DNA of 64,000 nt from an uncultured Candidatus Saccharibacteria bacterium (GTDB lineage: Bacteria; Patescibacteriota; Doudnabacteria; UBA920). The translations under genes and the position numbers were made by a program. Numbering within the stretch: position 1 is the stretch's first letter; every line of letters starts with the position of its first letter. Below the pieces are notes generated by a model, which was given only the letters and a program-made list of their open reading frames with translations, ran no database searches and had not been told where the DNA came from. Of this stretch, positions 1,116 to 55,604 are shown in pieces. The stretch is from positions 64,008 through 128,007 of the forward strand of contig CAZHIA010000007.1 of NCBI GenBank assembly GCA_964532425.1, written 5' to 3'.

Positions 1116-1206
1116 TCTGACATTTGACATGTAACATGTGACATTTGACTTTGACCTCTGCGGGTCAAATGTCAATTGTCAAAGGTCAAAGGTTTCTGAA
1201 ATTTCT
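1116..1206 (+). promoter_or_regulatory. conserved leader element, copy A (upstream of HIT gene)
   Basis: It fills the whole intergenic gap. It has TTGAC-containing 9-mer repeats (ACATTTGAC), ATGTCAC-type heptamers here in inverted orientation, and the hairpin TTTGACC...GGTCAAA. It ends GTCAAAGGTCAAAGGTTTCT before the ATG. Confidence 0.5.
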
Positions 1207-2663: not shown

Positions 2664-2735
2664 CTTATAGCTTTTAGCTGTCAGCTGATAGTTTTGTTTT
2701 GCTATAAGCTGGTAGCTATAGGCTAAAACCAATAC

Positions 2736-3986: not shown

Positions 3987-4012
3987 AAATCCCGCAAGGG
4001 ATTTTTTATTTT
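3987..4012 (+). terminator. intrinsic terminator after ftsA
   Basis: The hairpin AATCCC-GCAA-GGGATT is followed by TTTTATTTT. Confidence 0.6.
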
Positions 4013-4043
4013 GTAGTGCAGGCCCGTGGCCTGCTCTGTCGGT
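4013..4043. repeat. REP-like palindrome family TGTAGTGCAGGCC-N-GGCCTGC
   Basis: The sequence TGTAGTGCAGGCCCGTGGCCTGCTCTGTCGG recurs at 27326-27352 (reverse complement), 51147-51179 and, partially, 52736-52760, always just downstream of a stop codon. Confidence 0.5.
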
Positions 4044-4088: not shown

Positions 4089-4118
4089 TTGTCGATTGTG
4101 GTCCTTTTGTGCTATAAT
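4089..4118 (+). promoter_or_regulatory. putative promoter with extended -10 (TGTGCTATAAT) for the PP2C-domain gene
   Basis: The TGnTATAAT motif is at 4108-4118. The same extended -10 recurs upstream of ftsZ (9196-9204), groES, the 44309 gene and the 59897 gene. Confidence 0.45.
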
Positions 4119-4163: not shown

Positions 4164-7100
4164 ATGGGCAATGGTCACAATGGGGGTGAAAGGCCATACA
4201 TCAATGGCAATGGCTTTGATTCCTTAAAGGATTTTAAAATTACTCCTTCGGACCCTCAAGAACCCAAAGTAGAGGGTGTTTTACCGTCGGCGGAACAGCA
4301 AGTGTCAGAGGATAGAGTTGAAGCAGGTGCAGAAAACTGGATGTCGTTGATTTCCGATCAGGAACTTGAAAAGGCAGCAGGCCTGATTCACGATTTTGAC
4401 CTTAAAAATAGAAAAGCGCTCAGAGGATATGTTTATAGTCCTGAAGAATTTTGGAACGATTTTGAAGATTCGATATCCGATGAGTTTTTCAGAAATCCTG
4501 CATTCAAGAAAGCCCGGCGCGGCCTAGCTCCGCTGGCGTTACTTGATTTAGTGCGAGAAATAGTGGACGTAAACAAAAATCGGCTAACTGCCGAGTATCA
4601 ATCGACTCCTCCCATTCCGGGGTTTGTCGTTCCGGACTTGGCGGCGGCACAGGCACCGACTGCAGAACCAGCAGCGGGAGAACATGTTGAGCCTGTTCCG
4701 GGCGTGCATGTGGAAGCAGCAAGGCCTGAAGTAAAAGCTAGCGTGGAGCAGCAGAAGGCCTTCCGGGTTTTTATTAAAATATTGCAAGAAAAGCAAGCCA
4801 AGCAGGGAATTCGTACAATCGACGATAAGATCAGAAATTTTGAGGAAGCACTTCAGGAAGGATCGGTGAAAGCGGGAATGGCTGAGGATGCACTCCTGGC
4901 TATGCTCTACGAATTGTCCAGCCGCCAGCGCGAGTATGAGGAAGTGGTAGGAGCGATTGGCAATATGGATGCACCTGCGCGAAGACGACAGTTGGTCGGC
5001 CAGCTTATTACCTTGCTGGACCAGCAGTATGGCGCGGAAGCGGGTGAACAGGAAGCGGCTGAGTCCGGGCATGAGGCAGAAATCTTGCAGCAGGGAGAAA
5101 GCTACATCGTCGTACCCGGAGATCGCGGAGGCAGGAGGATGGTCGCTGATTTCCCGTCCGCGGAAGGCAGTGCGCGTTTTTCCGTTCCCGTTCCTGAATC
5201 GATGAACCTTGATACGCCTGATCAGGCGAATGATTTTTACAATTTTGTATATGAATTCCTTCTTGCCAATGTCCCTCCGGGCGGCCGGGGGGAAATTAGC
5301 CGTTTGAGCCGCGATGAGTACCGCAAGCTGGTGCACGCCTGGAATGTCCGCAAGCAGCCGCAAGCGAGACCAGTCCCGGCAAAACCGGCAGTAGTGCGGC
5401 TCATGCCTACTGCCCCAAAGCCCCCGCAAGCTGCAGAAGCGACGAGAGATCGGTTTGGTACGGCTAACGAAATTTATATGGAGATCAAGCCGAGGGTTGT
5501 GAAAATTCCTCAGGGGACGATCGGCGTATTTGTTGACAAAGGGGTTGAACGCGACTACCAGGAAGATCGTGCCGTCATCAACTCAGAAAAACTGGCCTTT
5601 GCTTCAGTTGATGGTATGGGCGGGATGGGAGAAAAGGGGTCTGGAGCATGGGCGGCACAGATGGCGGCTGAATGGTTCCATCGCGGTTTTGAGCAAGGCT
5701 TGTCATTCGAAGAGATTCAAGACCGGATCCACACTGCCCTGAAGGACTACGAAAAAGATAAGGACAAGAAAGGGGCCGGGATCTGTTATATTGCTGCCCG
5801 CATCGAGGGAAAAATGTTGAAGGGTGCCCAGGCGGGAGATGTCCGGCTGTTCGTTATTCGGAATGGTGTGATTGCATTTACTACCAAAGATCAGAATAAT
5901 GCAAACATTGGCCGTCCGAATGAAGTGACGAATGCAGTCAGTGGCGAGGATCGCGGCGAAACGATTGCATTCGAGTTTCCGCTTGAGCCTGGCGACCGGG
6001 TCGTTATGGCTTCCGACGGTCTTACCGGCAATCTAAGCAACGAACAGGTGGCAGCTTTGGTTCAGTACAAGAACACCGAGGAAGCCTTAGATGTTTTGCG
6101 GACCGAATCTGCACGCTTGATGGGTCAAAAAGACGGCAAGAAGGACAATATCAATGTCGTCATTTTTGATTACAACCCCGTTCAGCCGCCAGCTCCGGAA
6201 CCTGCTCCTGCAGCCGGACCGAAAAAGTTGGTGCCTGGCAAGATCAATAAACCTGCACCGACTTCTGCCCCTGTTGTGGCAGCCGTGGAAGCAGTCCCCA
6301 AAGCGGCTCCGGCAGAAACCGAACAACAGGCGAGCGAGAGGCTTTCGCGTGCAGCTGAACAATGCATTGCCGTTTTGCAGCAGGTGGGCAGGGAGCTACA
6401 AAGTGGCTTACCTTTCATGGAAGGTAGTGACCGGGTTGATCGTGCATTGGAAGAATGGGTGGCAGCTCGGGGTGATTTTCATAAGCATACACAAGCTGTC
6501 CGTAATTTGATTAGAGAACAGTCAAAAAATATCGAAGAAGCCTGGAAGGTTGTGGAAGAAACTATTAAGAAGAAAGAGCGGGAAGAGAAGCGGGTAGCTT
6601 CTGAGGCTGTGCCGGTTGAGCCTGCTGTTACTGGCGGCGAAGCTCCGGCTGATGGCGAGCCAAAAAAGAATGGCGACAAACTACCGCGCAATATCCGGGA
6701 TCTGATCCGTGACAACCAGCTTTCGCCCGATGAATTGACCTCGTTCTGCGAAAAGAGGTCGCTTGATCCTATTGCAACCTTCAAAAAAGCCCTAGACTAC
6801 GCCGGGTGCCCGGATGATCTGATTCAAGAGGCATCTTCAATGGACAAGTCTGAGGAAGCGCTTGCCCACTTATTTGCTCGGGTTATGGGCCTGCGCCGCG
6901 CCTCGTTCAGATCACACATGGGTCGTGGCGGCGAGGATGTTACGGACGTCGATGCTAAGACCCAAAATAATTTATATAACAATCTAGCTTCCCAATACCG
7001 AAGAGTGTGGCAGGAATATAAGGAGCGAGTACTGCCAGTTCATAGTCCGGAGCCTCCACCTCTTCATGAAGCCGTGCCGCCCGAACCTCCTAAACCACCG

Positions 7101-8895: not shown

Positions 8896-8912
8896 AAATA
8901 GGATCGTTTAAA

Positions 8913-8946
8913 AAATACCTTCGTGAATACGAAGGTATTTTTTTGT
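8913..8946 (+). terminator. intrinsic terminator
   Basis: The hairpin AAATACCTTCG-tgaat-ACGAAGGTATTT is followed by a T run. Confidence 0.65.
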
Positions 8947-9176
8947 ATTTTATAGTAGCGAAGCTCTTAAATATCAGTTAGTACATAGGTATCAGGTAAA
9001 TCTTTTTATACCCCCTCCCCCTCACTATGTTCGGGTACTCCCCCTAATAGGGGGAGAGTGGTCGCAAAAATTCGGTGTTCCTTCCCTTCTAGGGAAGGTG
9101 TCATCCTCCCTGGCGGATGACGGAAGGGTATCTGAAGTGTGTACTGCGGGTTGGTTCCTCCCAATGTATCATGGCC

Positions 9177-9204
9177 TTCCCAGACCCGGCCATTATGCTA
9201 TAAT
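9177..9204 (+). promoter_or_regulatory. putative ftsZ promoter (TTCCCA ... TGCTATAAT)
   Basis: An extended -10 TGCTATAAT lies about 175 nt upstream of the ftsZ start within a hairpin-rich leader. Confidence 0.4.
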
Positions 9205-9379
9205 GAAACCGCACCTCTTGCCCAAAACGCTGCTTTTCAGTAGTATATAGGAAGAGAACTTCTTTTATCTAAAATATAATTTACCCTCCCAGCCATCCGC
9301 CCCGTGCGGACCCGTCTCGCCTTGCGAGCCGAGGCGGATAGACAGGGGAAACACCAGAGAATGGGTGTAGAGGGCGGAC

Positions 9380-10573
9380 ATGAAGAAACCTATGGAAGTT
9401 AAGCCAAAAATCGAATCGTTTGCACGCATCAAAGTGTTAGGAATTGGCGGCGGCGGCACGAACGCTATAAACCGGATGACTGAGCTAGGTATTAAAGGGG
9501 TTGAGTTTGTTGCGATCAATACCGATGCCCAGGCCTTGCATAACAACCAGGCAGACCGCAAAGTCCATATTGGCAAGAATATTACCAAGGGTTTGGGTTC
9601 CGGTATGAATCCGGAGCTCGGGCGCCAGGCGGCAGAGGAGTCAGTGGAAGAACTGGAAGAGGTGGTCGATAATGCCGACATGGTGTTCATTACCTGCGGA
9701 CTTGGCGGCGGTACCGGTACCGGCGCGGCTCCGACCGTGGCCGAATTGGCAAAGAACAAAGGTATACTGACGGTCGCCGTGGTAACCAAGCCGTTCACGT
9801 TTGAAGGCAGTAAGAGAAAGGAAGTGGCTGAAGTTGGCTATGACAATCTCAAGGATAAGGTGGATGCTATTATTTCCATCCATAACGACCGCATCCTCCA
9901 GATCATCGACAAGAAGACTTCGCTCATTGACGCTTTTAAAACAGTCGACGAGGTGCTACGCCAGGGTATTTCCGGAATTTCAGATCTCATCACTTCGCAT
10001 GGTGTAGTGAATGCCGACTTTGCCGACGTTCGCAGCATTATGCAAGATGCCGGCACGGCTCTTATGGGTATCGGCCGGGGCAGCGGCGAAAATCGCGCCG
10101 AAGAAGCAGCCAAGCAGGCTATTAATTCTCCGCTTTTGGAACTGGCTATCGATGGCGCCAAGGGCGTATTGTTCAACATTACCGGCGGCCCGAATTTGGG
10201 AATGTTCGAGATCGACGAGGCTGCCAAAGTTATTACCAAGAGTATCGATCCGGATGCCAAGGTCAAGTTTGGCGCGGTTATTGACGAGAACATGGGTGAC
10301 GATCTTCGCATTACGGTTATTGCCACCGGCTTTGACGAGGCGAACAAGCGTCCCAATCTGTTGTCAATGCCTACAGCTGACGAGGCCAAGAAGCCGGTCT
10401 ACCAGGAACCGAAGTACACGCCGCCTCCGGTAGAAATTCGAAAGCCGTTGTTTAATCCGAAACCAGTAGAACCGATCCAGCCCATGCAGCCGCGCAACGA
10501 CGAAGACGCTGCCTCATCTTCTCCGGACGACGAGTTGGATATACCGGCGTTCATTAGAAAGAAAATGAAATAA
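9380..10573 (+). CDS. ftsZ: cell division protein FtsZ
   Basis: It has the tubulin signature GGGTGTGAAP and the GIGGGGTNAINRM, NTDAQAL motifs. The C-terminal tail ends DIPAFIRKK. Confidence 0.9.
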   Translation: MKKPMEVKPKIESFARIKVLGIGGGGTNAINRMTELGIKGVEFVAINTDAQALHNNQADRKVHIGKNITKGLGSGMNPELGRQAAEESVEELEEVVDNADMVFITCGLGGGTGTGAAPTVAELAKNKGILTVAVVTKPFTFEGSKRKEVAEVGYDNLKDKVDAIISIHNDRILQIIDKKTSLIDAFKTVDEVLRQGISGISDLITSHGVVNADFADVRSIMQDAGTALMGIGRGSGENRAEEAAKQAINSPLLELAIDGAKGVLFNITGGPNLGMFEIDEAAKVITKSIDPDAKVKFGAVIDENMGDDLRITVIATGFDEANKRPNLLSMPTADEAKKPVYQEPKYTPPPVEIRKPLFNPKPVEPIQPMQPRNDEDAASSSPDDELDIPAFIRKKMK

Positions 10574-10689: not shown

Positions 10690-10860
10690 GCTAGCGATAG
10701 CTGCCCGACTCTCAAATTTCAAATTACAATAACCAAATCCCAAATAAATTCCAATACCCAAAATAGTCAATGTACAAATCCTTTCTGGAGTTTTGAATTT
10801 GAGATTTGGATATTATTTGGTATTTGGGATTTGGAATTTGGTGCTTATAAAAGCGGGCGC
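10690..10860. repeat. CCAAAT/ATTTGG-rich inverted-repeat element
   Basis: The arms CAAATTTCAAATTACAATAACCAAATCCCAAATAAATTCCAATACCCAAAATA and TATTATTTGGTATTTGGGATTTGGAATTTGGTG are inverted. A related element lies at 42426-42550, sharing CCAAATAAATTCCAA. Confidence 0.45.
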
Positions 10861-14140: not shown

Positions 14141-14182
14141 ATAGCCTGCGCACTCCCAAGAGGGGAGTGCGCTCTTTTAATT

Positions 14183-14342
14183 GTCATTGCGAGAAGATAA
14201 GGGCTTTGACTTATCGACGAAGCAATCTGACGCCTTTGGTGTCATCCCAAGTGTCAACCTCAGACGGACCTGCCGACGGCACGACATCCGAGGGGTCTCC
14301 TTTATAGGAAGGATTGCTTCGCTTCAGATAAGGCCCTGAAGC
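14183..14342. repeat. MITE-like element, family GTCATTGCGAG...CTCGCAATGAC
   Basis: The terminal inverted repeats are GTCATTGCGAG at 14183 and CTCGCAATGAC at 14332. The sub-terminal inverted repeats are GAAGCAATC and GATTGCTTC. It is 160 bp with no ORF. Confidence 0.6.
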
Positions 14343-14643
14343 TCGCAATGACAACGGTCTTGCAAAAAAAATCTATCTGTGCTATAATATATGTAGATTC
14401 ATTCCGGCAGAAACAAAAAACAAAAGAAAATTGAATATTTTCTTTAACACCTTGCAAAAAGGTGGTTGTTGCTGTGGAATATAAAGGTCGATAGGGCCAA
14501 TGGTCCTACAGAATCTTCTAAGAAACAAACAATAAAAACAAAATCACAAAAGAGAGGGTTCCGTCCGGCGGTGTATGCGTGGAGGGAAAGGAGTATATCC
14601 GCGCGAATACTTCTTTACGCCAGCTGTCCGGCGGTGCAAACTT

Positions 14644-18513: not shown

Positions 18514-18960
18514 ATGCGCTGTCCAAACTGTCAAAATGAGGATACAAAGGTAATCGATTCGAGGCCGGTTGATGACGCCAGTGCCATACGGCGCCGGCGC
18601 CAGTGCGAAAAGTGCGAGTTCCGCTTTTCTACGTATGAGGAGATTGAAATTCTGGACCTGACCGTGGTCAAGAGGGACGAGACCAAAGAGCCTTATAGCC
18701 GGGAAAAGCTGGAACGGGGGATTAAGCGGGCCTTTGAGAAGCGCGAGCACAATGACCAAACCTTGAGAAAGCTTATTTCCGGCATTGAACAGGATATCCA
18801 GAAAAAAGCCAAGGATGGAGAGATTCGGAGCTCAGATATCGGTGACATTGTCATGCGGCGAATGAAACGGATCGACAAGGTGGCCTACATCCGTTTCGCC
18901 TCGGTCTACCGCTGCTTCGAGGACGTGGAAGAATTTAAGGCGGAACTGCAAAAACTGTGA
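18514..18960 (+). CDS. nrdR: transcriptional repressor NrdR
   Basis: It has an N-terminal zinc ribbon (MRCPNCQ...C..C) and an ATP-cone, and sits immediately upstream of the RNR gene. Confidence 0.85.
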   Translation: MRCPNCQNEDTKVIDSRPVDDASAIRRRRQCEKCEFRFSTYEEIEILDLTVVKRDETKEPYSREKLERGIKRAFEKREHNDQTLRKLISGIEQDIQKKAKDGEIRSSDIGDIVMRRMKRIDKVAYIRFASVYRCFEDVEEFKAELQKL

Positions 18961-19158
18961 TAGTAATCTCGAATCCGCCAGCTGGCGGAACAAATGCAGC
19001 GCAAATATTCGAATTGCTATTGGCCGTATATCCAATCAAGAGCGGTGTGTAGTATTAGTATATTTGTGTTTGATTCGTTATATTAGAGAATACTCCTTTA
19101 CATTAAGTTAACAACCATTAACCATCCATCATCAGGTGGAATAACAAGAGAGCAATCC

Positions 19159-24989: not shown

Positions 24990-25616
24990 ATGTCAACCCT
25001 TCAGAGAAAACCAAAAAAAGATAAACCGGTCATAGCCAAAAAAGGTCTGGTCATCGCCTACATTGGCGACGGCAAGGGTAAGACCGGTGCGGCCATGGGA
25101 CTAGCCGTGCGCGCGGCCGGTAGCGGCATGGATGTCTGCATTTTGCAATTCGTAAAATCCAAAAAACCCGAAGGCCGGAATCTGCAACCCGGCGAATGGC
25201 CGCTCTCGAATGAAATCGTTTTTTTTGACGGCATCTCGGGCAGCGGCAAGATCGGCTGCATTGATACCGAGCAGTTAGGGGAGGGGTTCGTTGGAATCTT
25301 GGGCGACAAAAAAGACCGCGACGTACACATCCGCGAAGCCCTCAGAGGGTTGGAATCGGCCCGTCAACTGATATTGTCAGGTAAGTACCAACTGATTATT
25401 TTGGATGAAATTATCTCCGCCCTGGAGCTGAATTTGCTTACCGAGCAGGATATTGTCGAGCTGATCAAAATCAAGCCTGAGATGCTTCACCTCTGTATGA
25501 CCGGCCATAAAAAATTCAAAAAGATTATTGCAGCCTGCGACCTGGTCACGGAAATGAAGATGATCAAGCATCCGTACTACGAGGGAGTGCTGGCGCAGCG
25601 GGGAATAGACTATTAA
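24990..25616 (+). CDS. cobO: cob(I)yrinic acid a,c-diamide adenosyltransferase (CobA/CobO/BtuR family)
   Basis: It has the GLVIAYIGDGKGKTGAAMGLAVRAAGSGM P-loop region and YQLIILDEI motif typical of ATP:corrinoid adenosyltransferase. Confidence 0.75.
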   Translation: MSTLQRKPKKDKPVIAKKGLVIAYIGDGKGKTGAAMGLAVRAAGSGMDVCILQFVKSKKPEGRNLQPGEWPLSNEIVFFDGISGSGKIGCIDTEQLGEGFVGILGDKKDRDVHIREALRGLESARQLILSGKYQLIILDEIISALELNLLTEQDIVELIKIKPEMLHLCMTGHKKFKKIIAACDLVTEMKMIKHPYYEGVLAQRGIDY

Positions 25617-25744
25617 AAATTGAACAAAATTGATCAAAATTAAATAAAATTGACAAAATTGCCACTGCATAGTTTCGTGGCGTCACTTGTCAAAATTATT
25701 TATCGACATTAGAATACAAGGGTAAATTAAAAAGAAAGAAGACA

Positions 25745-27204: not shown

Positions 27205-27482
27205 TCAGTATCCTCCTGAAACTCTTGGCTATCCCGAAGAGTACCGTATTCTGCCTGCCCGGTCAATGGTTATTTAAAAAAGCCTTTCAGCAACAAGTGA
27301 CCTGTAACACTAAACATTTACAAAGGGCAGGCCACGGGCCTGCACTACAGTCACAGATCAAAGGTTAATCATCAAATGTCTCTTGGAGTATTTGTTTAGG
27401 ATTTCGGATTTGAAATCGCGGGCGCCTGTCGGCGGCCCCTACACAGCAAAGTATGTCCATCGAAATGTGTTATGATATGGGC

Positions 27483-30288: not shown

Positions 30289-30379
30289 CATTTAACATTT
30301 AACACCTGACATTTAACCTTTGACAGCTGCAATTGCAGGAAGTCAAATGTCACATGTCATATGTCAAAGGTTTTCTAAA
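30289..30379 (+). promoter_or_regulatory. conserved leader element, copy B (upstream of ndk)
   Basis: It has ACATTTAAC repeated three times, CCTTTGACA, the heptamers ATGTCAC ATGTCAT ATGTCA, and then GTCAAAGGTTTTCT before the ATG. CCTTTGAC and GTCAAAGG can pair. Confidence 0.5.
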
Positions 30380-30874: not shown

Positions 30875-30913
30875 GGGACAAGTAAGGAGTAAATAGTAAA
30901 CAGCGATAAGTAG

Positions 30914-30984
30914 GGGCGGGCATTGCCCGCCCTTTAAAGTTTCAAAAACAGCCATATTTATTAATAATATGGCTGTTTTTTGGT
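30914..30984 (+). terminator. tandem terminators after ndk
   Basis: A GGGCGGGCATTGCCCGCCC hairpin is followed by AAAAACAGCCATATTTATTAATAATATGGCTGTTTTTT. Confidence 0.65.
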
Positions 30985-31049
30985 TATTGACATTTTGCCT
31001 AAAAAATGCTATAATTATAGGAAAATTTGAACTGGAGGGTTTAAATCAT

Positions 31050-37214: not shown

Positions 37215-37226
37215 TTCGCTTCTATT

Positions 37227-37339
37227 GTCATTGCGAGCCCCGCCCTTTTTGCATCAAAAGGGTGGGGCGAAGCAATCTTTCCACATTGTGAAATAATAGA
37301 TTGCTTCGTTATTCGGATGCACTCATTCCTCGCAATGAC
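37227..37339. repeat. MITE-like element, same family
   Basis: It shows the same terminal and sub-terminal inverted-repeat architecture, GTCATTGCGAG...GAAGCAATC...GATTGCTTCG...CTCGCAATGAC, over 113 bp. Confidence 0.6.
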
Positions 37340-37370
37340 AGTTGTAGGGGCGGGTCTGTGACCCGCCCAA

Positions 37371-39204: not shown

Positions 39205-39300
39205 TATGATACGGATATACGGATAGGTGCTGATGATACGGATAATACTGATGAGGTCCCATCCGTATCCATCAGTATCATCCGCATGCATCCGTATATC
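39205..39300. repeat. iteron-like array of ATACGGAT / ATCCGTAT octamers
   Basis: There are at least three direct GATACGGAT(A) copies, followed by inverted ATCCGTAT(C) copies and a TGATGATAC...GTATCATCCG symmetry. Confidence 0.45.
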
Positions 39301-39314
39301 GGTATCTCACAATT

Positions 39315-39659
39315 ATGGAAAACGAAAAATGGGAACAGCTTGTCCAAATGGTGAAGACCAAGTTTGACGACGTGGAGCTCTCCACGGAAGATCTTGAGCT
39401 GGAGACTCAGGATGGCCCTGTCAAACAGGGAACCATGGACATTCTGATTTTCGAAAATAATGGCGGGCGCTTCAAGTTGACGCGAGAGAACCGGCCGGTG
39501 GTGCTCGAAAAAAAAGAACACTTCAGCCACCGGATGGGGGACACAGCTCGGACCGAGTACAAATTTTCCGAGACGGAATATTCGCACAAGCTCAGAGTAT
39601 ACAAGGAGACAGGATATGAGGAGTGGGAAGAGATAACTTTGGATAAACTTAGGATATAG
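39315..39659 (+). CDS. hypothetical acidic protein
   Basis: It is 114 aa and sits downstream of the ATACGGAT repeat array. Confidence 0.4.
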   Translation: MENEKWEQLVQMVKTKFDDVELSTEDLELETQDGPVKQGTMDILIFENNGGRFKLTRENRPVVLEKKEHFSHRMGDTARTEYKFSETEYSHKLRVYKETGYEEWEEITLDKLRI

Positions 39660-39660
39660 A

Positions 39661-39705
39661 AATACAGTAGAAATACAATTGAAATAAATAGAAATACAAT
39701 TGTAT
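39661..39705. repeat. left inverted repeat flanking the four-helix-bundle gene
   Basis: GAAATACAGTAGAAATACAATTGAAATAAATAGAAATACAATTG is the reverse complement, at most positions, of 40096-40146. Confidence 0.5.
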
Positions 39706-40084
39706 GAACCAGAACACATATGTGCATTTGTACGACTTGGAGGTGTATAAGCTAGCTCGAGAGCTTTCTCGGGTCGGTTGGCAAATTTACGAGAAGTTAG
39801 ACTGGCAAACTAAGAAGATCATGGGAGACCAGTTTATAGAGTCAACAGATTCCACTGGAGCAAACATAGCAGAGGGGTACGGGCGGTTCCATTTTTTGGA
39901 TAAAATAAAGTTTTACTACAATAGTCGTGCATCGCTATTTGAATGTGGGTTACACTGGATAAGTTTATTAGAAGAGAGAGAAAAGGTGGAGCATGATTTG
40001 GCTTTGGAGTTTAAGAATGTTGCTAAGCAGTTATCAGTTAAGTTGAATAATTTTATTACTGTTTCGTATCAGCACCGCAAGTAA
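39704..40084 (+). CDS. four-helix-bundle protein (23S rRNA intervening-sequence protein / DGR Avd-like family)
   Basis: It shows YKLARELS....Y......K...GDQ...S..S...NIAEGYGR........Y..RAS..E, which is typical of this family. The gene is AT-rich and flanked by roughly 40-bp inverted repeats. Confidence 0.6.
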   Translation: MNQNTYVHLYDLEVYKLARELSRVGWQIYEKLDWQTKKIMGDQFIESTDSTGANIAEGYGRFHFLDKIKFYYNSRASLFECGLHWISLLEEREKVEHDLALEFKNVAKQLSVKLNNFITVSYQHRK

Positions 40085-40095
40085 TTGTCCGGTAC

Positions 40096-40146
40096 TATTG
40101 TAATTCTACTATATTTCTACTGCATTTCAATTGTATTTCTATCTCA
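40096..40146. repeat. right inverted repeat flanking the four-helix-bundle gene
   Basis: ATTGTAATTCTACTATATTTCTACTGCATTTCAATTGTATTTCTATCTC mirrors the left flank. Confidence 0.5.
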
Positions 40147-41895: not shown

Positions 41896-41920
41896 TGTAG
41901 GGGCGGATATTATCCGCCCG
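41896..41920. repeat. REP-like hairpin family TGTAGGGGCGGATAnTATCCGCCCG
   Basis: It matches 52794-52818 at 24 of 25 positions. Related TTGTAGGGGCGGGTCTGTGACCCGCCC lies at 37342-37368, and TGTAGGGGCGTGCGAC lies at 38655 and 38800. Confidence 0.5.
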
Positions 41921-42425: not shown

Positions 42426-42550
42426 CAATACATTCATCAAAATTCCAAATCACAAATCACAAATTCCAAATAAATTCCAAACTTCAAATTCAAATGAGTA
42501 AGCAGTTTTGGAGTTTGGAAATTGAAAATTATTTGTAATTTGATACTTGG
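42426..42550. repeat. CCAAAT/ATTTGG-rich inverted-repeat element (groES-groEL spacer)
   Basis: It reads AAATTCCAAATCACAAATCACAAATTCCAAATAAATTCCAAACTTCAAATTC...TTTGGAGTTTGGAAATTGAAAATTATTTGTAATTTGATACTTGGTACTTGGAATTTT. Confidence 0.45.
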
Positions 42551-42577
42551 TACTTGGAATTTTTCCGAAGGAATATT

Positions 42578-46821: not shown

Positions 46822-46829
46822 CAAGCGAA

Positions 46830-46870
46830 AAATCGGGAAAAGGCGAAGCCTGACCCGATTTTTATTATAA
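46830..46870 (+). terminator. intrinsic terminator
   Basis: The hairpin AAAATCGGG...CCCGATTTT is followed by TATTAT. Confidence 0.55.
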
Positions 46871-46926
46871 TTTATGATTATTTATGGCTTAATTAAGCCA
46901 TATTTTCAGTATTGGCGGGATAACTC

Positions 46927-46955
46927 TTGACAAAAAACAGCTTTTGGTGTATACT
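46927..46955 (+). promoter_or_regulatory. consensus sigma70-type promoter with no downstream ORF
   Basis: It reads TTGACA, a 17-nt spacer, then TATACT, and is preceded by an AT-rich UP-like region and the palindrome TGGCTTAATTAAGCCA. Confidence 0.5.
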
Positions 46956-47728
46956 GTTGAGTTAAATAAAAAATTGTAGTTTAAATAACGCTCTTACCAA
47001 TCATATAGCTGTGCCTCGAATGTTTTACAGGAGACAATCGGGTGCACGGTTTACGTCCGGCACTGGTTTCTGTGAGTTCAGTATAAACCAGGTCAATTAT
47101 TTCGATTACTAGTTGGTATTTATGTTAGCTTGCAGAAACTAGTGCTGGACACCATCATGCTCCTAATAGGGCTTAAACCCTTTTGGGGGCGCGATAAAGC
47201 CGTGTATTCTATACAAGAATAACTTTTCCAGAGATTCTCCTGTATAAAATATACGGTTTTTTGTTTAGGAGTAATCTCTAATATACGAATCTAGCACAAA
47301 TATACGAATACAGCACACCATCATTTATTTCTTAGAGCGGCCAATAGCTATTTGAATATTTGCGCTGTATTAGCCATATTCGAGATCACTATAATTGTTT
47401 CCAGTATTCCGGATCGGAGAAGGTCAACTTTATGGGTCCGATACGACCCACCGCCTCATCTCTGATCCAGAGTGGTGGAAATAATATCAATGTTGTGTCA
47501 TTCCGGCCCCGGAGCCGGAATCCATGCTCCCTTATCGTTCCTTACTATTCACTAAGCTTTGTTTACTAAAATCCGTAGTTATCCGTAGATTGGCATTCAT
47601 TGGTAGATTTGTAAATTTTCTCTACCATCGTGGGCCTAACAGGAAGGCAAACATTTTAGGATCGAGACGATCCGTCGGCCTCATCCTTTTGCTTAGACCC
47701 ACAATGGTGGATGAAAATCTTCCTCTGT

Positions 47729-48778: not shown

Positions 48779-49761
48779 CAACCATCTAATTCACTATTTC
48801 TCTAATTCACTAATTTACTAGCTAGTTTGTTTCTTCCATCATGGGCCAGAGCAGAGAAGGTTAACCAAATTTGGGTCGCTATGACCCTTCGGCCTCGTCA
48901 CTGCTGTGACCCATAATGGTAGAAGTAAAACACAATTTTAGAAGGGAAGATTGCCGCGCTCGGATGCACCTGCCTACCGGCAGGCAGGCTCGCTCGCAAT
49001 GACATGTAAGACTTTGTCATTGCGAGGAGAAAAGGACTTTAACTTTTCGACGACTTGTCCGCTGTAGCCTTGGCGAAGGTGGAAGCAATCTTTCGGTGTC
49101 ATTCCGGAGACCACGAAGCGAAGCGGAGAGTCATCCGGAATCCATTCTCTATAGTTGCCATACTATTCACTAGTCACTGACCACTATTTTGTATCCACCA
49201 TTGTGGATCTAAGCACGGAAGGTAAAATTTTTATGTCGCCTGTGGCGGCACCGACCTCATCCGAATGCTTTGATTCACAATAGCGGATGCAATCCGCTGG
49301 AGCCAGCCTGCTGGGCCAGGCTCGCATTCATAAAATGAAAATAAAGAATAGAGAATAGCCCCTCCGCGCACCAGGAGGGGGTGGATCACCGGGACTCGAA
49401 CGAGTGACAACGAATCCATAAAGGACGATTCGAGGATCAAGGACCATACATGAGCGTGCATGGGGCGTTTAAGTCCCATAACCGAGCGGTGAAAGCTGCT
49501 CAAATATTTAACCCTGCCGGGCGGCGACAATTATCCCCGGCATAAAGCCCTGAAAAGCAGGAGGAGGAAAAAGGACATGCGCTACAAGTTTCGTTTATGA
49601 ATCTCTACGGGTCTAGACCGGGACTGACCCAACCGGTTGCTGGCTCCGGCGGGAGATCACGGCGTATCCAAAACCACGCGCTGGGCAAGCCTCGCTTGCC
49701 CTTCTTTCTGAGCTAGCCTATCTGTAATGTTTAGATAGGCAGCTGAGAAGGAAGGAGGATT
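48779..49761. other. ORF-free structured region (~1 kb) rich in family repeats
   Basis: No credible ORF was found. It contains REP and MITE family copies and the hairpins CCCCTCC...GGAGGGGG and GGGTCGCTATGACCC. It carries the inverted partner of CCACAATGGTGGAT, whose other copy is at 47700. Confidence 0.4.
48993..49150. repeat. composite of MITE-family termini (head-to-head CTCGCAATGAC/GTCATTGCGAG, then GTCATTCCGGAG...CATCCGGAATCC)
   Basis: The family motifs are juxtaposed, and it shares the CGCTGTAGCCTTGGCGAAGGTGGAAGCAATC block with the element at 50280-50310. Confidence 0.4.
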
Positions 49762-50150: not shown

Positions 50151-50238
50151 GTCATTGCGAGGGAGTGCATCCGACCGAAGCAATCTTTTATGGTAAAGAT
50201 TGCCACGCTCCTCGGCTGCACTCGGAGCTCGCAATGAC
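50151..50238. repeat. MITE-like element, same family
   Basis: It reads GTCATTGCGAGGGAGTGCATCCGACCGAAGCAATC...GCTGCACTCGGAGCTCGCAATGAC over 88 bp. Confidence 0.55.
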
Positions 50239-50449
50239 ATAGGGATGCAGTACTCTCCTGCAATATTAGGAGGAGTGGCTGCGACCTGTCCACCGTAGCC
50301 TCGGCGAAGGCGGGAGCAGACGAGGTGGTAAATGTCCTTAACTCTGTGGCAAGAAGTTTGGCGGTAACTCGGTAATCCGGTTTATTGCCAAGCTCCTTCC
50401 CGCAAGGGAAAAAATCAAAGCTGTTCATTTACAAGGAGAATACACAAAA

Positions 50450-52470: not shown

Positions 52471-52934
52471 AAACATGTGTGCGGTCACCTTCGGTGACCG
52501 CCTCTCTTCCGAACTCGTTTATGCGGGTTGGGAAGAGGGGATGATATTGATCGAAATTCTGTGCAGTGCAGGCCCGCTTCGCTATCGCTTGAGCGAGGCG
52601 AGCCCTTGGCCTGCTCCCCGTGTCATTGCGATTTTAGAGGTAAATTCCCATGATGAAGCGATCTAAACCTCGTGTTAGGTAAGATTGCTTCGTCGTTCGG
52701 CTGCACTCACTTCTCGCAATGACAAACAGCGGGTAATGTAGTGCAGGTCCTCTGACTACGCACAAGGCTACGTCGTACTAGTCGGCCTGCCAGTGTAGGG
52801 GCGGATAGTATCCGCCCGAAAGAAGGGAAGATAATATCTTCCCCTTACATAACGCAATAGATTTATTGCCAGAATTGAAAACTTAAAGAATTGAGTTTAT
52901 AATTCTGTCAGTATATAAACCTGTAGGGGGATTC

Positions 52935-53111
52935 ATGGGAAGTTTTTTTTCGCAGTACTTAGAAGAGCGGCGCTTGTATAAGCGCCAACGGCAGATTGAT
53001 CAAAACTTGGGCGTGTCACGCTCCTGGATCGGACTGTCCGGCTGGATAGTCCGAGGCGGGTATGTCGCATTTCTCGCCTTGATGTTTCTCTGGATCTATA
53101 CGAGGAGGTAG
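52935..53111 (+). CDS. putative small membrane protein (58 aa)
   Basis: It has an AGGGGGATT RBS and a C-terminal TM helix. It is the first of three tightly packed mini-ORFs. Confidence 0.3.
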   Translation: MGSFFSQYLEERRLYKRQRQIDQNLGVSRSWIGLSGWIVRGGYVAFLALMFLWIYTRR

Positions 53112-53115
53112 TTGA

Positions 53116-53262
53116 ATGCTTATTGTAGCCGGAATTAGTCTGGCTTTGCTCATCTCAATAATCTCCGTGAGAGCGGCCTTCTTCCCTTCGTCTGAGCCGG
53201 GTCAAACGGATGACTCTAATGATCAGCCCGAATTTCCCGCTGTGTGGAAGAGTGAGTCATGA
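53116..53262 (+). CDS. putative small membrane protein (48 aa)
   Basis: It has a GAGGAGGT RBS and an N-terminal TM helix. Confidence 0.3.
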   Translation: MLIVAGISLALLISIISVRAAFFPSSEPGQTDDSNDQPEFPAVWKSES

Positions 53263-53405
53263 CCTGGGTGGACGCTCTCGTGCAGACCCTTGCCGGGTTT
53301 GCATTCTTCTTCGGTTCCATCTTCCTCCCGCCGCTGCTTGCGGTTAGCTACATCAAGTGGCGGGAGCACCGCGAACGAAAACACGAATCCGAAAAGGGGA
53401 CATGA
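53259..53405 (+). CDS. putative small membrane protein (48 aa)
   Basis: It has an ATGA start/stop overlap with the previous mini-ORF, which suggests translational coupling. A TM helix is present. Confidence 0.3.
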   Translation: MTWVDALVQTLAGFAFFFGSIFLPPLLAVSYIKWREHRERKHESEKGT

Positions 53406-53638
53406 ACCTTACGTCTCCTTTTCCCCTCTAACCTGTCGGCGATGTGCTGATACGTACGTAATGGGGCAACCCTAGCCGTATTTACCAGCATCCTGTCTCG
53501 CCGGCGGGTTTGAGGGAATGACTATTGAACAAAATTAAATAAAATTAATTAAAATTAAGTAAAATTGGAACGCAAGGGCTGCTCAGAGCAAGTTCAATAT
53601 TGTAATATACAAGTCTTCCGATATGGGAAGTCTTTTTT

Positions 53639-53762
53639 ATTTGCGACGTAGAGCGAGGAGGTGGAAGCTTGCTTTCAATTTCCGAGCCGAGGAGCAAATA
53701 TTTATAATATTTGCGACGTAGAGCGAGGAAATGGAATCAAAATTCCAATTTCCGAGCCGAGC
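53639..53762 (+). repeat. tandem duplication of a ~54-bp unit (period 70)
   Basis: ATTTGCGACGTAGAGCGAGGA...CAATTTCCGAGCCGAG occurs twice, at 53639-53692 and 53709-53762. There are only two copies and the spacers differ, so it is not CRISPR-like. Confidence 0.5.
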
Positions 53763-53985
53763 CTGCCTGCCCCGGCACCATCATATGGTGCTCGGGCCTG
53801 CCGGTAGGCAGGGAGCAAATATAGGTTCAATTTCTTGGCAGCTTGCAGTATGGAACCTCTATTTTGTCCACTTTGACAACCCTAACTTTAGGGAATACAA
53901 TAGGCCTATAGTTTCCAGCTTGTCGCTGGCTGCTGTGTCCTCGGCAGTCAACATCCAGGCTTGGAAAGCCACCAGGAGGAAGTGA

Positions 53986-54492: not shown

Positions 54493-54636
54493 CTGATGTT
54501 GTGGCGGTAACCGGATTTCGTCCGGTTGCCGCCGTATTTTAATTTGACGCCAGGCGGCAATTACGATATAATGCGTACAGTTTGCAATCTGACTTATCAT
54601 TTTGCATTTTTAACTTTTAACTTTTCTCTGATCACT

Positions 54637-54807: not shown

Positions 54808-54891
54808 GATAAACATTTGACAATTAACCTTTGACATTTGACCACTGTGATCGAGTTACATGTCACATGTCAAAGGTCAAAGGTTTTCTTT
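54808..54891 (+). promoter_or_regulatory. conserved leader element, copy C (upstream of nusB)
   Basis: It has ACATTTGACA, CCTTTGACATTTGACC, ATGTCACATGTCA and GTCAAAGGTCAAAGGTTTTCT before the ATG. Its architecture matches copies A and B. Confidence 0.5.
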
Positions 54892-55380: not shown

Positions 55381-55604
55381 GTTCATTACCGATAGGTTTT
55401 CCTATCGGTATTTATTTTAAAAATATGCATTGAAAATAAAAATAGCTATTCCTCACAATTCAACGATCGTTGAATTGTAGGGAATAGGGGGAGGGTTAGG
55501 AGTGAAATATGTGTGAGCACTGTCTCAAAAATCCCTAGGTTTGATATTTTTAAATTAATATTGTATATTTAAGCCAAGTTTTACCAATAGAAACTAAAAT
55601 ATCC

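Follow-up and report, generated by a model that had tools for sequence, protein, structure and literature searches.

A palindrome of tandem heptamers that fills intercistronic gaps in Patescibacteria

Patescibacteria have tiny, tightly packed genomes, yet hairpins of ~80–130 nt are kept between genes of their essential operons. What such a hairpin is, and what it could do there, is the question raised by a 64,000-nt stretch of DNA from an uncultured Candidatus Saccharibacteria bacterium (contig CAZHIA010000007.1; hereafter the window), in which one repeated element stands in front of hit, ndk and nusB. A preliminary description, made from the letters of the sequence, took it for a promoter/operator combined with a translational gate dedicated to these three genes. 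Our analysis establishes the anatomy, copy number, distribution and operon context of the element, together with the absence of promoter and terminator signals of its own and of covariation in its stem. The explanation that we favour, with moderate confidence, is a repetitive extragenic palindrome (REP)-like intercistronic repeat of heptamers, carried in operon mRNA, any effect of which would be post-transcriptional.

One palindrome of heptamers in three intercistronic gaps

Three gaps of the window are each filled, from the stop codon of the upstream gene to the ATG of the downstream gene, by one shared element (copies A, B and C; Table 1), with coordinates exactly as first described. Pfam assigns the flanking products to HisRS and HIT (copy A), cyclophilin-type peptidyl-prolyl isomerase (PPIase) and NDK (copy B), and L32 and NusB (copy C); the flanking genes are co-directional at each copy, and all three copies have the same orientation relative to them. 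The likeness of the copies is far beyond chance, and they are genuine copies of one repeat. The mean column identity of their alignment is 77%, and a profile built from members of the family scores each of them with an E value of ~1e-18 to 1e-19. The motif ACATTTRAC has 8 matches in the window against 1.04 expected, a number reached by none of 100 shuffles; ATGTCAYATGTCA has 6 matches at no more than one mismatch against 0.13 expected; and GTCAAAGGTTT occurs exactly only at 1185, 30363 and 54876, the 3′ ends of the copies. The motifs named in the preliminary description are restricted to the three gaps.

A fourth copy, decayed, is found ~74 nt upstream of a minus-strand gene with a GGAGG of its own, in a divergent gap, so that the window holds three copies and one decayed copy, with none in coding sequence. 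Outside the elements TTGACA is not over-represented (coding sequence, 23 against 23.6 expected; other intergenic sequence, 8 against 6.6), and a DNA-uptake sequence was rejected on these counts.

The element is one imperfect palindrome of ~80 nt, composed of about four TTGACAn units, a short loop and about four nTGTCAA units, and ending in AAAGGTTT. The consensus from an alignment of 11 family members reads TAACATTTGACATTTGACAnTTGACATTTGAC, loop, then GTCAAATGTCAAATGTCAAATGTCAAAGGTTT. By Tandem Repeats Finder, all six arms of A, B and C have a period of 7. A repeat finder pairs 1120–1149 with 1164–1193 in copy A (80% complementary, 14-nt loop) and, between copies, finds 5′ and 3′ arms that are up to 91% complementary. 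The stem, ~30 bp long and imperfect, begins 0–5 nt past the upstream stop codon and ends 2–9 nt before the downstream ATG (up to 14 nt for GGTTT); the 3′ end is invariant, as first described, at this distance rather than at 4–10 nt. TGA or TAA recurs every 7 nt and, as 7 is not divisible by 3, supplies stops in each of the three reading frames, as can be read from the sequence.

The 9-mers, ATGTCAC heptamers and 3′ GTCAAAGG that had been listed as separate modules are real motifs of this one palindrome. Specifically, each 9-mer covers slightly more than one unit of the 5′ arm. The ATGTCAC heptamers belong to the 3′ arm as its units, and this explains the apparent change of strand of the heptamer block in copy A; GTCAAAGG is the final 3′ unit. 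The complementarity noted between CCTTTGAC and GTCAAAGG is likewise real in A, B and C, in a register one unit off the main palindrome.

Table 1. Element copies, related hairpins and transcription signals. Positions are those of the window unless a locus is named; SD, Shine-Dalgarno sequence.
Feature	Position	Strand	Remarks
Copy A, whole element	1116..1206	+	Spans hisS stop to hit ATG (1207); profile E 3.8e-19
Copy A, 5′ arm	1118..1156	+	TGACATT x5.6; TTGACA-type tandem 7-nt units
Copy A, 3′ arm	1163..1195	+	GGTCAAA x4.4, reverse complement of 5′ arm; ends GTCAAAGGTTT; SD-like AAAGG 1188-1192
Copy B, whole element	30289..30379	+	Spans PPIase stop to ndk ATG (30380); profile E 2.8e-18
Copy B, 5′ arm	30289..30325	+	CATTTAA/CATTTGA units x5.3
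Copy B, loop	30326..30341	+	Holds small GC hairpin GCTGCAATTGCAGG
Copy B, 3′ arm	30342..30373	+	GTCAAAT x3.9; ends GTCAAAGGTTT; SD-like AAAGG 30366-30370
Copy C, whole element	54808..54891	+	Spans rpmF stop to nusB ATG (54892); profile E 1.6e-18
Copy C, 5′ arm	54812..54843	+	ACATTTG units x4.3
Copy C, 3′ arm	54855..54886	+	GTTACAT GTCACAT GTCAAAG GTCAAAG GTTT; SD-like AAAGG 54879-54883
Decayed fourth copy	27273..27381	-	Profile E 4.8e-4; GC-rich repeat 27324-27349 nested in loop
Sibling hairpin, TAGCTnT heptamers	2664..2735	+	Fills yqeY-ftsA gap
Sibling hairpin, AAATTCC/AAATCAC heptamers	42426..42553	+	Fills groES-groEL gap; z -3.78
CTACTAAATAC…GTATTTAGTAG hairpins	L126 6756-6835; L142 7139-7205; L145 17686-17768; L146 17372-17428		
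Promoter-like TTGACG-17-TATAAT	54544..54572	+	Upstream of rpmF; likely promoter of rpmF-[C]-nusB operon
Terminator-like hairpin and T-run	55387..55410	+	After nusB
Terminator-like hairpin, then perfect TTGACA-17-TGnTATAAT promoter	30944-30980, then 30987-31015	+	After ndk
Promoter TTGTCG-18-TGnTATAAT	4089-4118		Precedes gene at 4164

In predicted folds each copy forms one long hairpin that spans its gap, and both strands are more stable than shuffled sequences, with z-scores from −2.8 to −5.6. The minimum free energy of the sense strand is −27.9 kcal/mol (z −3.17) for copy A, −22.8 kcal/mol (z −2.75) for copy B and −27.5 kcal/mol (z −4.49) for copy C; the antisense values are −25.6, −33.0 (z −5.56) and −24.2 kcal/mol, respectively. 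In the 11-copy alignment, 75.7% of 341 cells are paired in the palindromic register, compared with 21–43% when the partner columns are slid.

The position of the element points to the interior of operons. In many relatives the same gene pairs lie close together (1–9 nt for rpmF–nusB, 21 nt for PPIase–ndk), which indicates that the pairs are co-transcribed. With a co-directional upstream gene ending 0–5 nt from the stem and abutting pairs in relatives, the elements appear to be operon-internal rather than parts of promoters, the decayed copy in the divergent gap being the exception. Canonical promoters and terminators bracket the operons instead (Table 1), and the terminator and promoter that follow ndk exemplify the genuine signals of this genome. 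Many genes of the window have AT-rich leaders behind TGnTATAAT promoters; the GC skew of the window is positive throughout the plus strand, and most genes lie on that strand.

No copy offers a usable −10 element, contrary to the promoter/operator first proposed. A promoter scan found no −10 element at 16–18 bp from the −35-like TTGACA in A or C, and its sole call, a 9/12 match in copy B, places the −10 element over the ndk start codon. A terminator scan that calls classic GC-stem/T-run terminators nearby made no call in A, B or C; at most 3–4 T's follow the stem of the element, whereas the scan asks for at least 5 T's in 8 positions and a GC-rich stem. Judging from these missing signals, the element probably has neither promoter nor terminator activity of its own.

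At the start-proximal end stands AAAGG, and hit, ndk and nusB are preceded by no other SD-like sequence, in agreement with the earlier designation of AAAGG as the likely SD. It is similar to the SD that ndk natively has in relatives, GAAAGGAA or AAGGAA, and breaks the palindrome, the perfect form of which would be AAATG, in 10 of the 11 copies (alignment pair 15/88). In the window at large, a GGAGG-type SD is present at only ~15 of 66 crude gene starts. The claim that the SD is locked in a stem is only partly true: it is clear for copy C alone, with a modelled probability of being unpaired of 0.18, and for the other copies the model gives 0.40–0.62. Accessibility was modelled for positions −16 to +3, and a terminating ribosome was mimicked by masking the 13 nt after the stop codon. 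With this mask the predicted value rises from 0.18 to 0.47 for C and from 0.42 to 0.61 for A, and is unchanged or lower for B and for the copies of L026 and L028.

These observations suggest how the element could act. It would be transcribed within a polycistronic mRNA, and a ribosome terminating at the upstream stop codon would melt the base of the stem and free the 3′ end. In forward copies, the freed AAAGG would probably substitute for the displaced native SD, and through it the downstream start may become coupled to upstream translation. In addition, the stem could be an exonuclease barrier or a processing site, setting the relative expression of both cistrons, as REPs do in E. coli. We infer these roles, for AAAGG as for coupling or stability, from the sequence.

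The element also misleads gene annotation. Open reading frame (ORF) finding starts hit, ndk and nusB inside it, at 1138, 30320 and 54838, and public gene calls do likewise, because in-frame ATG, GTG and TTG codons occur there. In particular, the in-frame ATG at 30347, in the 3′ arm of copy B, is wrongly taken as the ndk start by gene callers, and the database Ndk of this organism (P0001; 175 aa) carries 11 spurious N-terminal residues, MSHVICQRFSK, encoded by that arm. Recognising this class of element would fix start sites in genomes of the candidate phyla radiation (CPR).

The family and its replacements in other genomes

Scanning one genome per GTDB species with a two-arm pattern yielded 43 loci, with ~60 chance matches expected at 20 specified bases. 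Seven of the loci are true copies, each with a hairpin and several TTRAC/GTYAA units, and the remaining 36 are noise. The true copies come from six Patescibacteria metagenome-assembled genomes (two labelled Saccharibacteria, two Patescibacteria, one Peregrinibacteria and one unclassified), and a profile search added a second copy in one of the six. The downstream genes in these genomes encode SSB, NusB, RpoA, a PilT-type ATPase, SecD, KhpB/Jag and a Kef-type antiporter, and have no obvious common theme beyond their location in operons. A family that also precedes ssb, rpoA, pilT, secD, khpB/jag and a Kef-type antiporter gene does not form a gate dedicated to three housekeeping genes, as had been supposed. 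Among the 11 copies, 8 are forward, with GTCAAAGGTTT at the start codon, 2 are inverted (L029 and L024 copy 1) and 1 is nearly symmetric.

Copies are about as similar between genomes as within them. Arm identity is 81% within a genome and 77±6% between genomes; the orthologous pair formed by copy C and L026 is 84% identical, compared with 89% for the non-orthologous pair formed by copy C and L004. All copies lie ~10–12% from a single consensus, which indicates that the motif is constrained or that copies are transferred between genomes. A phage or plasmid origin was rejected: the two-arm pattern has 12 matches in IMG/VR, all by chance and in coding sequence and none a family member, and blastn of copy C against phage and plasmid collections gave no match.

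At orthologous gaps the family is patchy. We fetched 80 nusB loci from metagenomes (665 kb; NusB identity 54–76%) without reference to the element, and these contain no profile match. At rpmF–nusB the family is found in the window and in L026, the only other genome that has it there, whose NusB is 59.6% identical to that of the window; L045 has a variant with a 9-nt period, and in the other ~48 inspected loci the family is absent or replaced by something different. Many relatives have a gap of 1–9 nt that leaves no room for an element. Others have a plain short hairpin, hairpins or arrays of CTTCTAG, CAAAT-type or GAATTAG units, or, in L045, the TTGACA/TGTCAA hairpin of ~9-nt period. L045 carries TGACA/TGTCA cores at both 9600–9727 and 9901–9994, with reversed arm polarity (AAGTCAA…TTTTGAC) before rpmF and the 9-nt period before nusB.

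Look-ups based on Ndk added five more syntenic genomes, with the order nrdR-nrdA…comEC-PPIase-ndk…relA…fpg…groES-groEL. Of 7 genomes compared at the PPIase–ndk gap, 6 have a significant hairpin there (z −2.75 to −7.6), and all 6 compared at the groES–groEL gap have one (z −1.5 to −3.8), whereas 3 of 4 comEC–PPIase gaps, taken as controls, are unstructured. At a given gap, the family of units changes from genome to genome. At PPIase–ndk, L127 has no element, and L126 and L142–L146 have other unit families; no member of the TTGACA family was found at the loci L126–L147. The CTACTAAATAC…GTATTTAGTAG family occupies the ndk gap in L126 and L142 and the groEL gap in L145 and L146 (Table 1), and its CTAC/GTAG termini resemble the GTAG of REPs associated with RAYT transposases. 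L126 also has an array of TTTTGTCAW with a 9-nt period at 5902–5978, before the PPIase gene.

The retention of a hairpin at particular junctions despite turnover of the sequence family is the most intriguing result of this analysis. A junction that keeps its hairpin through a change of units fits a structural or positional role better than a motif-specific one. Such replacement suggests that the phylum has an unrecognised form of control between cistrons, or else that repeats are generated in it with unusual activity.

A survey of the window and related loci (803 kb) places the element in a wider class. Short tandem arrays of period 7 number 208, compared with 65, 53 and 66 for periods 6, 8 and 9. 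There are 16 strict pairs of inverted arrays, made of many different units, and 14 of them end no more than 14 nt from an ATG. The element is the TTGACA sub-family of these clade-wide, gap-filling hairpins of inverted short tandem repeats, which have further siblings in the window itself (Table 1).

Explanations weighed against one another

Overall, the preliminary description recognised a real, shared and non-random element with a constant orientation in the window and a hairpin, and its promoter/operator and private gate did not stand. It had also set the element apart from generic REPs, and here the evidence runs the opposite way, since the element behaves as one family among REP-like intercistronic palindromes.

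Several findings weigh against that explanation too, or at least against a selected mRNA stem within it. Covariation analysis of the aligned copies, which the preliminary description had offered as a test of its gate, found compensatory changes to be essentially absent, with one double change in 341 cells and a score that lies below the mean of the shuffles and is equalled or exceeded by 498–499 of 500 column shuffles; these numbers do not demonstrate selection on the pairing of the stem. The TTGAC/GTCAA cores hardly vary, and the variation falls mostly at the spacer position of the units and is uncompensated. In mRNA sense, A·C mismatches outnumber G·U pairs by 26 to 8, also in inverted copies, a polarity opposite to that expected for a selected mRNA hairpin, and copy B is predicted to be much more stable as antisense. 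The two copies that run opposite to their operons place no AAAGG in front of the downstream start, and the 8:2 ratio of forward to reverse copies is not significant. The constancy of ACATTTRAC and GTCAAAGGTTT is partly built in, as the pattern used to find copies outside the window required both. Modelled occlusion of the start is weak outside copy C, and the predicted effects of unmasking by a ribosome are inconsistent. As for mobility, pairwise identities within and between genomes give no signal of recent intragenomic spread, no transposase, Y1 domain or RAYT was found among the window ORFs scanned, and there is no consistent flanking direct repeat: TCTGA stands on both sides of copy A and is unmatched in B and C, the boundaries being approximate.

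The near-invariance of the cores could instead mean that the TTGACA/TGTCAA array is bound by one protein per heptamer, with incidental pairing of the arms, and controls translation or transcription of the downstream gene. The binder might be a cold-shock or S1-type single-strand binder on mRNA, or a helix-turn-helix protein (sigma region 4 or a repressor) on DNA. In keeping with such an array, the spacers vary freely without compensation, and copies stay within ~10–12% of the consensus, with C closer to L004 than to L026, though their hosts are only ~60% identical in NusB; TGACA/TGTCA cores recur at a 9-nt period in L045 and L126, and the polarity of mismatches speaks against a selected mRNA stem. 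A precedent exists in the TAACTGA heptamers just ahead of start codons, which have been proposed as targets of S1, Csp or CsrA, and in heptamer repeats of which each unit is bound by one CspB protein (PMC4679880). We nevertheless consider a binding array unlikely. The same gaps in related genomes hold hairpins of quite different units, the downstream genes form no coherent regulon, and two copies are inverted and one is decayed. On duplex DNA, a 7-bp spacing would present successive units on different faces, and the shift from a period of 7 to 9 would break the phasing. The window yielded no candidate for such a protein.

Alternatively, the element may have no function at all, as a by-product of replication slippage, which would create the tandem units, and of quasi-palindrome template switching, which would maintain the complementarity of the arms, or as a selfish insertion, surviving only where it is harmless, in intercistronic gaps in which the palindromic form keeps the stop and start codons close. 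Its patchiness would then be expected, with many relatives lacking it (rpmF–nusB gaps of 1–9 nt, an ndk gap of 21 nt), as would the decayed copy with its nested repeat, the absence of covariation, the tolerance of either orientation, and the great abundance of period-7 arrays of many unit types. With stops in all frames, moreover, the units cannot be absorbed into ORFs, a property also noted for TAACTGA repeats (PMC4679880). Against this account stand the hairpins kept at the ndk and groEL gaps and mostly missing from the control gaps, cores that are conserved, unlike neutral sequence, across genomes with ~60% NusB identity, and the consistent departure from the palindrome at AAAGG, at the start-proximal end. 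In addition, the same unit family occurs at different gaps in different genomes, for which drift in situ is insufficient by itself. A functionless origin therefore seems improbable to us.

A bolder proposal, which we regard as doubtful, is that inverted heptamer arrays are a post-transcriptional device throughout the Patescibacteria, and that the PPIase–ndk and groES–groEL junctions need a hairpin from stop to start whose sequence is free to turn over. In one possible version, the stem would bring the upstream stop codon beside the downstream start codon, allowing SD-independent re-initiation in SD-poor genomes. In another, the unit motifs (TTGACAn, CTACTAAATAC, AAATTCC and others) might be read by a heptamer-counting Csp/S1-type binder that tunes translation.

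The promoter/operator and SD-sequestering gate that was first proposed to co-regulate hit, ndk and nusB is very unlikely. Its TTGACA hexamers do agree with the −35 consensus in demonstrable use in this genome, AAAGG lies in or beside the stem, the start region of copy C is largely paired, and the three window copies share their orientation; however, no −10 element is suitably placed, the element directly follows a co-directional gene in pairs that abut in relatives, genuine promoters and terminators bracket the operons, and elsewhere the family precedes unrelated genes and is sometimes inverted, and the stem shows no compensatory changes. An intrinsic terminator or attenuator, in which the long stem, at −23 to −28 kcal/mol and with GGTTT(T)C behind it, would halt part of transcription between the cistrons from a position right after the stop codon that is typical of terminators, is highly improbable, as the stem is AT-rich and mismatched with only 3–4 T's behind it, is not called by the scan that finds classic terminators elsewhere in the window, would leave the downstream gene with no promoter, and in inverted copies lacks even the short T-run.

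Other repeats of the window and relation to known systems

The window contains further repeats besides the TTGACA family. A family of AAATTCC/CAAATCA 7-mers is found at 10714–10841 and 42426–42574, with arms 84% complementary between the two loci, and AAATTCC-like units also occur in L048, L004 (1796–1911) and L081. Gap-filling hairpins with arms of ACGGATA-type 8-mers lie at 2112–2222 and 39208–39306. A GC-rich nested palindrome, TGTCATTGCGAG…CTCGCAATGACA, has at least 5 intergenic copies (14181–14353, 37226–37340, 49014–49053, 50197–50239 and 52682–52724), and two families of GC-rich hairpins, TAGGGGCGG…CCGCCC and TGTAGTGCAGGCCCGTGGCCTGC, are represented at 30911–30933, 37345–37365, 41898–41920 and 52796–52818, and also at 4012–4037 and 27324–27349; the repeat inside the loop of the decayed TTGACA copy belongs to the TGTAGTGCAGGCCCGTGGCCTGC family.

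Arrays of 10-nt phased A-tracts, (AAAATTGAAC)n and (AAAATTAAAT)n, stand directly after or before genes at 25616–25661 and 53531–53566; being helically phased, they are more suggestive of intrinsically bent DNA than of hairpins. Inverted arrays of the 11-nt unit ATAGAAATACA at 39653–39700 and 40095–40145 (82% complementary, 425 nt apart) bracket the ORF 39704–40084, which encodes 126 aa with a "23S rRNA-intervening sequence protein" domain (PF05635) and may be a small mobile cassette. Two inverted repeats of 34–35 nt, at 18993–19078 and 47285–47371, are 86–91% complementary and 28 kb apart. The former lies just upstream of nrdA (19159) and downstream of nrdR (18514–18960), and contains a ACACAAATATAC-type sequence that presumably resembles NrdR boxes. 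Three long non-coding stretches, 46822–47523 (702 nt; predicted −247 kcal/mol), 52471–53826 (1356 nt) and 8896–9379 (484 nt), have very stable predicted structures and no Rfam match at gathering level; on the strength of these predictions they could be unrecognised non-coding RNAs or clusters of repeats.

Searches of known RNA families and repeat systems narrowed the comparison. Rfam 15 at gathering scores finds only tRNA-Gly in the whole window, and permissive scans of copies A and C return chance-level scores of 15–20 bits against thresholds of 45–70. The element was rejected as an integron attC site (RYYYAAC...GTTRRRY): some 5′ ends have ATTTAAC, but the 3′ ends read GTTTTCT or GTTTCTG, and the flanks are syntenic core genes. 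TIGR-Tas arrays are long, have ~36-nt units with two spacers each, and lie beside a Tas gene with a Nop domain (PMC12045711). The period of 7 nt, the total of ~80 nt, the core housekeeping flanks and the missing Tas gene led us to reject that identity as well.

Translational-coupling hairpins, such as the MS2-type coat–replicase hairpin and those of several ribosomal-protein operons, mask the downstream ribosome-binding site until the upstream cistron is translated. The present elements are similar in that the base of the stem abuts the upstream stop codon and, in the predicted fold, AAAGG and sometimes AUG pair with the stop-proximal arm. In contrast to those hairpins, which are gene-specific and show compensatory evolution, the elements described here are dispersed, lack covariation and occlude the start weakly in most copies.

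Hairpins of the miniature inverted-repeat transposable element (MITE) type, such as Neisseria Correia, Yersinia ERIC/IRU and pneumococcal BOX/RUP, are ~70–150 bp long, have inverted-repeat arms, and are intergenic and co-transcribed; their RNA hairpins can be processed, or can mask or supply translation signals depending on orientation. Presence/absence polymorphism at the orthologous rpmF–nusB and PPIase–ndk gaps is a shared property. Unlike MITEs, the elements have no evident target-site duplication, no cognate transposase among the window ORFs scanned and no sign of a recent intragenomic burst, and have low-complexity tandem arms instead of unique terminal inverted repeats.

One of the two closest likenesses is to REPs and the bacterial interspersed mosaic elements (BIMEs) of Enterobacteria and Pseudomonas. 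Both are multi-copy imperfect palindromes that are extragenic within transcription units, often intercistronic and near the upstream stop codon; both come in several families per genome and are patchy between relatives. The known effects of REPs are post-transcriptional, as a barrier to exonucleases at the 3′ end of mRNA, and in E. coli a REP no more than ~15 nt from the stop codon reportedly reduces translation of the upstream gene. The differences are that REPs are 20–40 nt long and GC-rich, whereas the element here is ~80 nt long, with AT-rich arms of ~30 nt made of tandem 7-nt units; that the TTGACA family has no GTAG-type 5′ tetranucleotide and no RAYT was seen among the window ORFs scanned; and that the host is a CPR bacterium.

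The other likeness is to repeats with heptameric units. In Beggiatoaceae, Cyanobacteria and Bacteroidetes, TAACTGA repeats reach to ~1 nt from start codons, have stops in all frames, usually lack a downstream SD, lie in ribosomal-protein operons and are absent from close relatives, whose gaps are shorter (MacGregor 2015, PMC4679880), and contiguous heptamers stand upstream of recF/recO in Nostoc (bioRxiv 10.1101/2022.06.06.494920). A literature search found no paper on such elements in Saccharibacteria or Patescibacteria. As in our case, these are intergenic sets of tandem 7-nt units (2–6 or more per set) that end a few nucleotides before starts; their distribution across phyla hints at transfer, and translational regulation has been proposed for them. 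They differ in being direct repeats, with 1 of 170 sets inverted (PMC4679880), whereas every element here is a pair of inverted arrays, and in their unit, which is TAACTGA, GACYAAT or TTTTGAA rather than TTGACAn. If the elements are linked to the heptamer repeats of Cyanobacteria, Beggiatoaceae and Bacteroidetes, a fourth lineage would join that puzzle, and with it a variant that forms hairpins. The elements of this window combine the two likenesses, as heptamer arrays set in inverted pairs.

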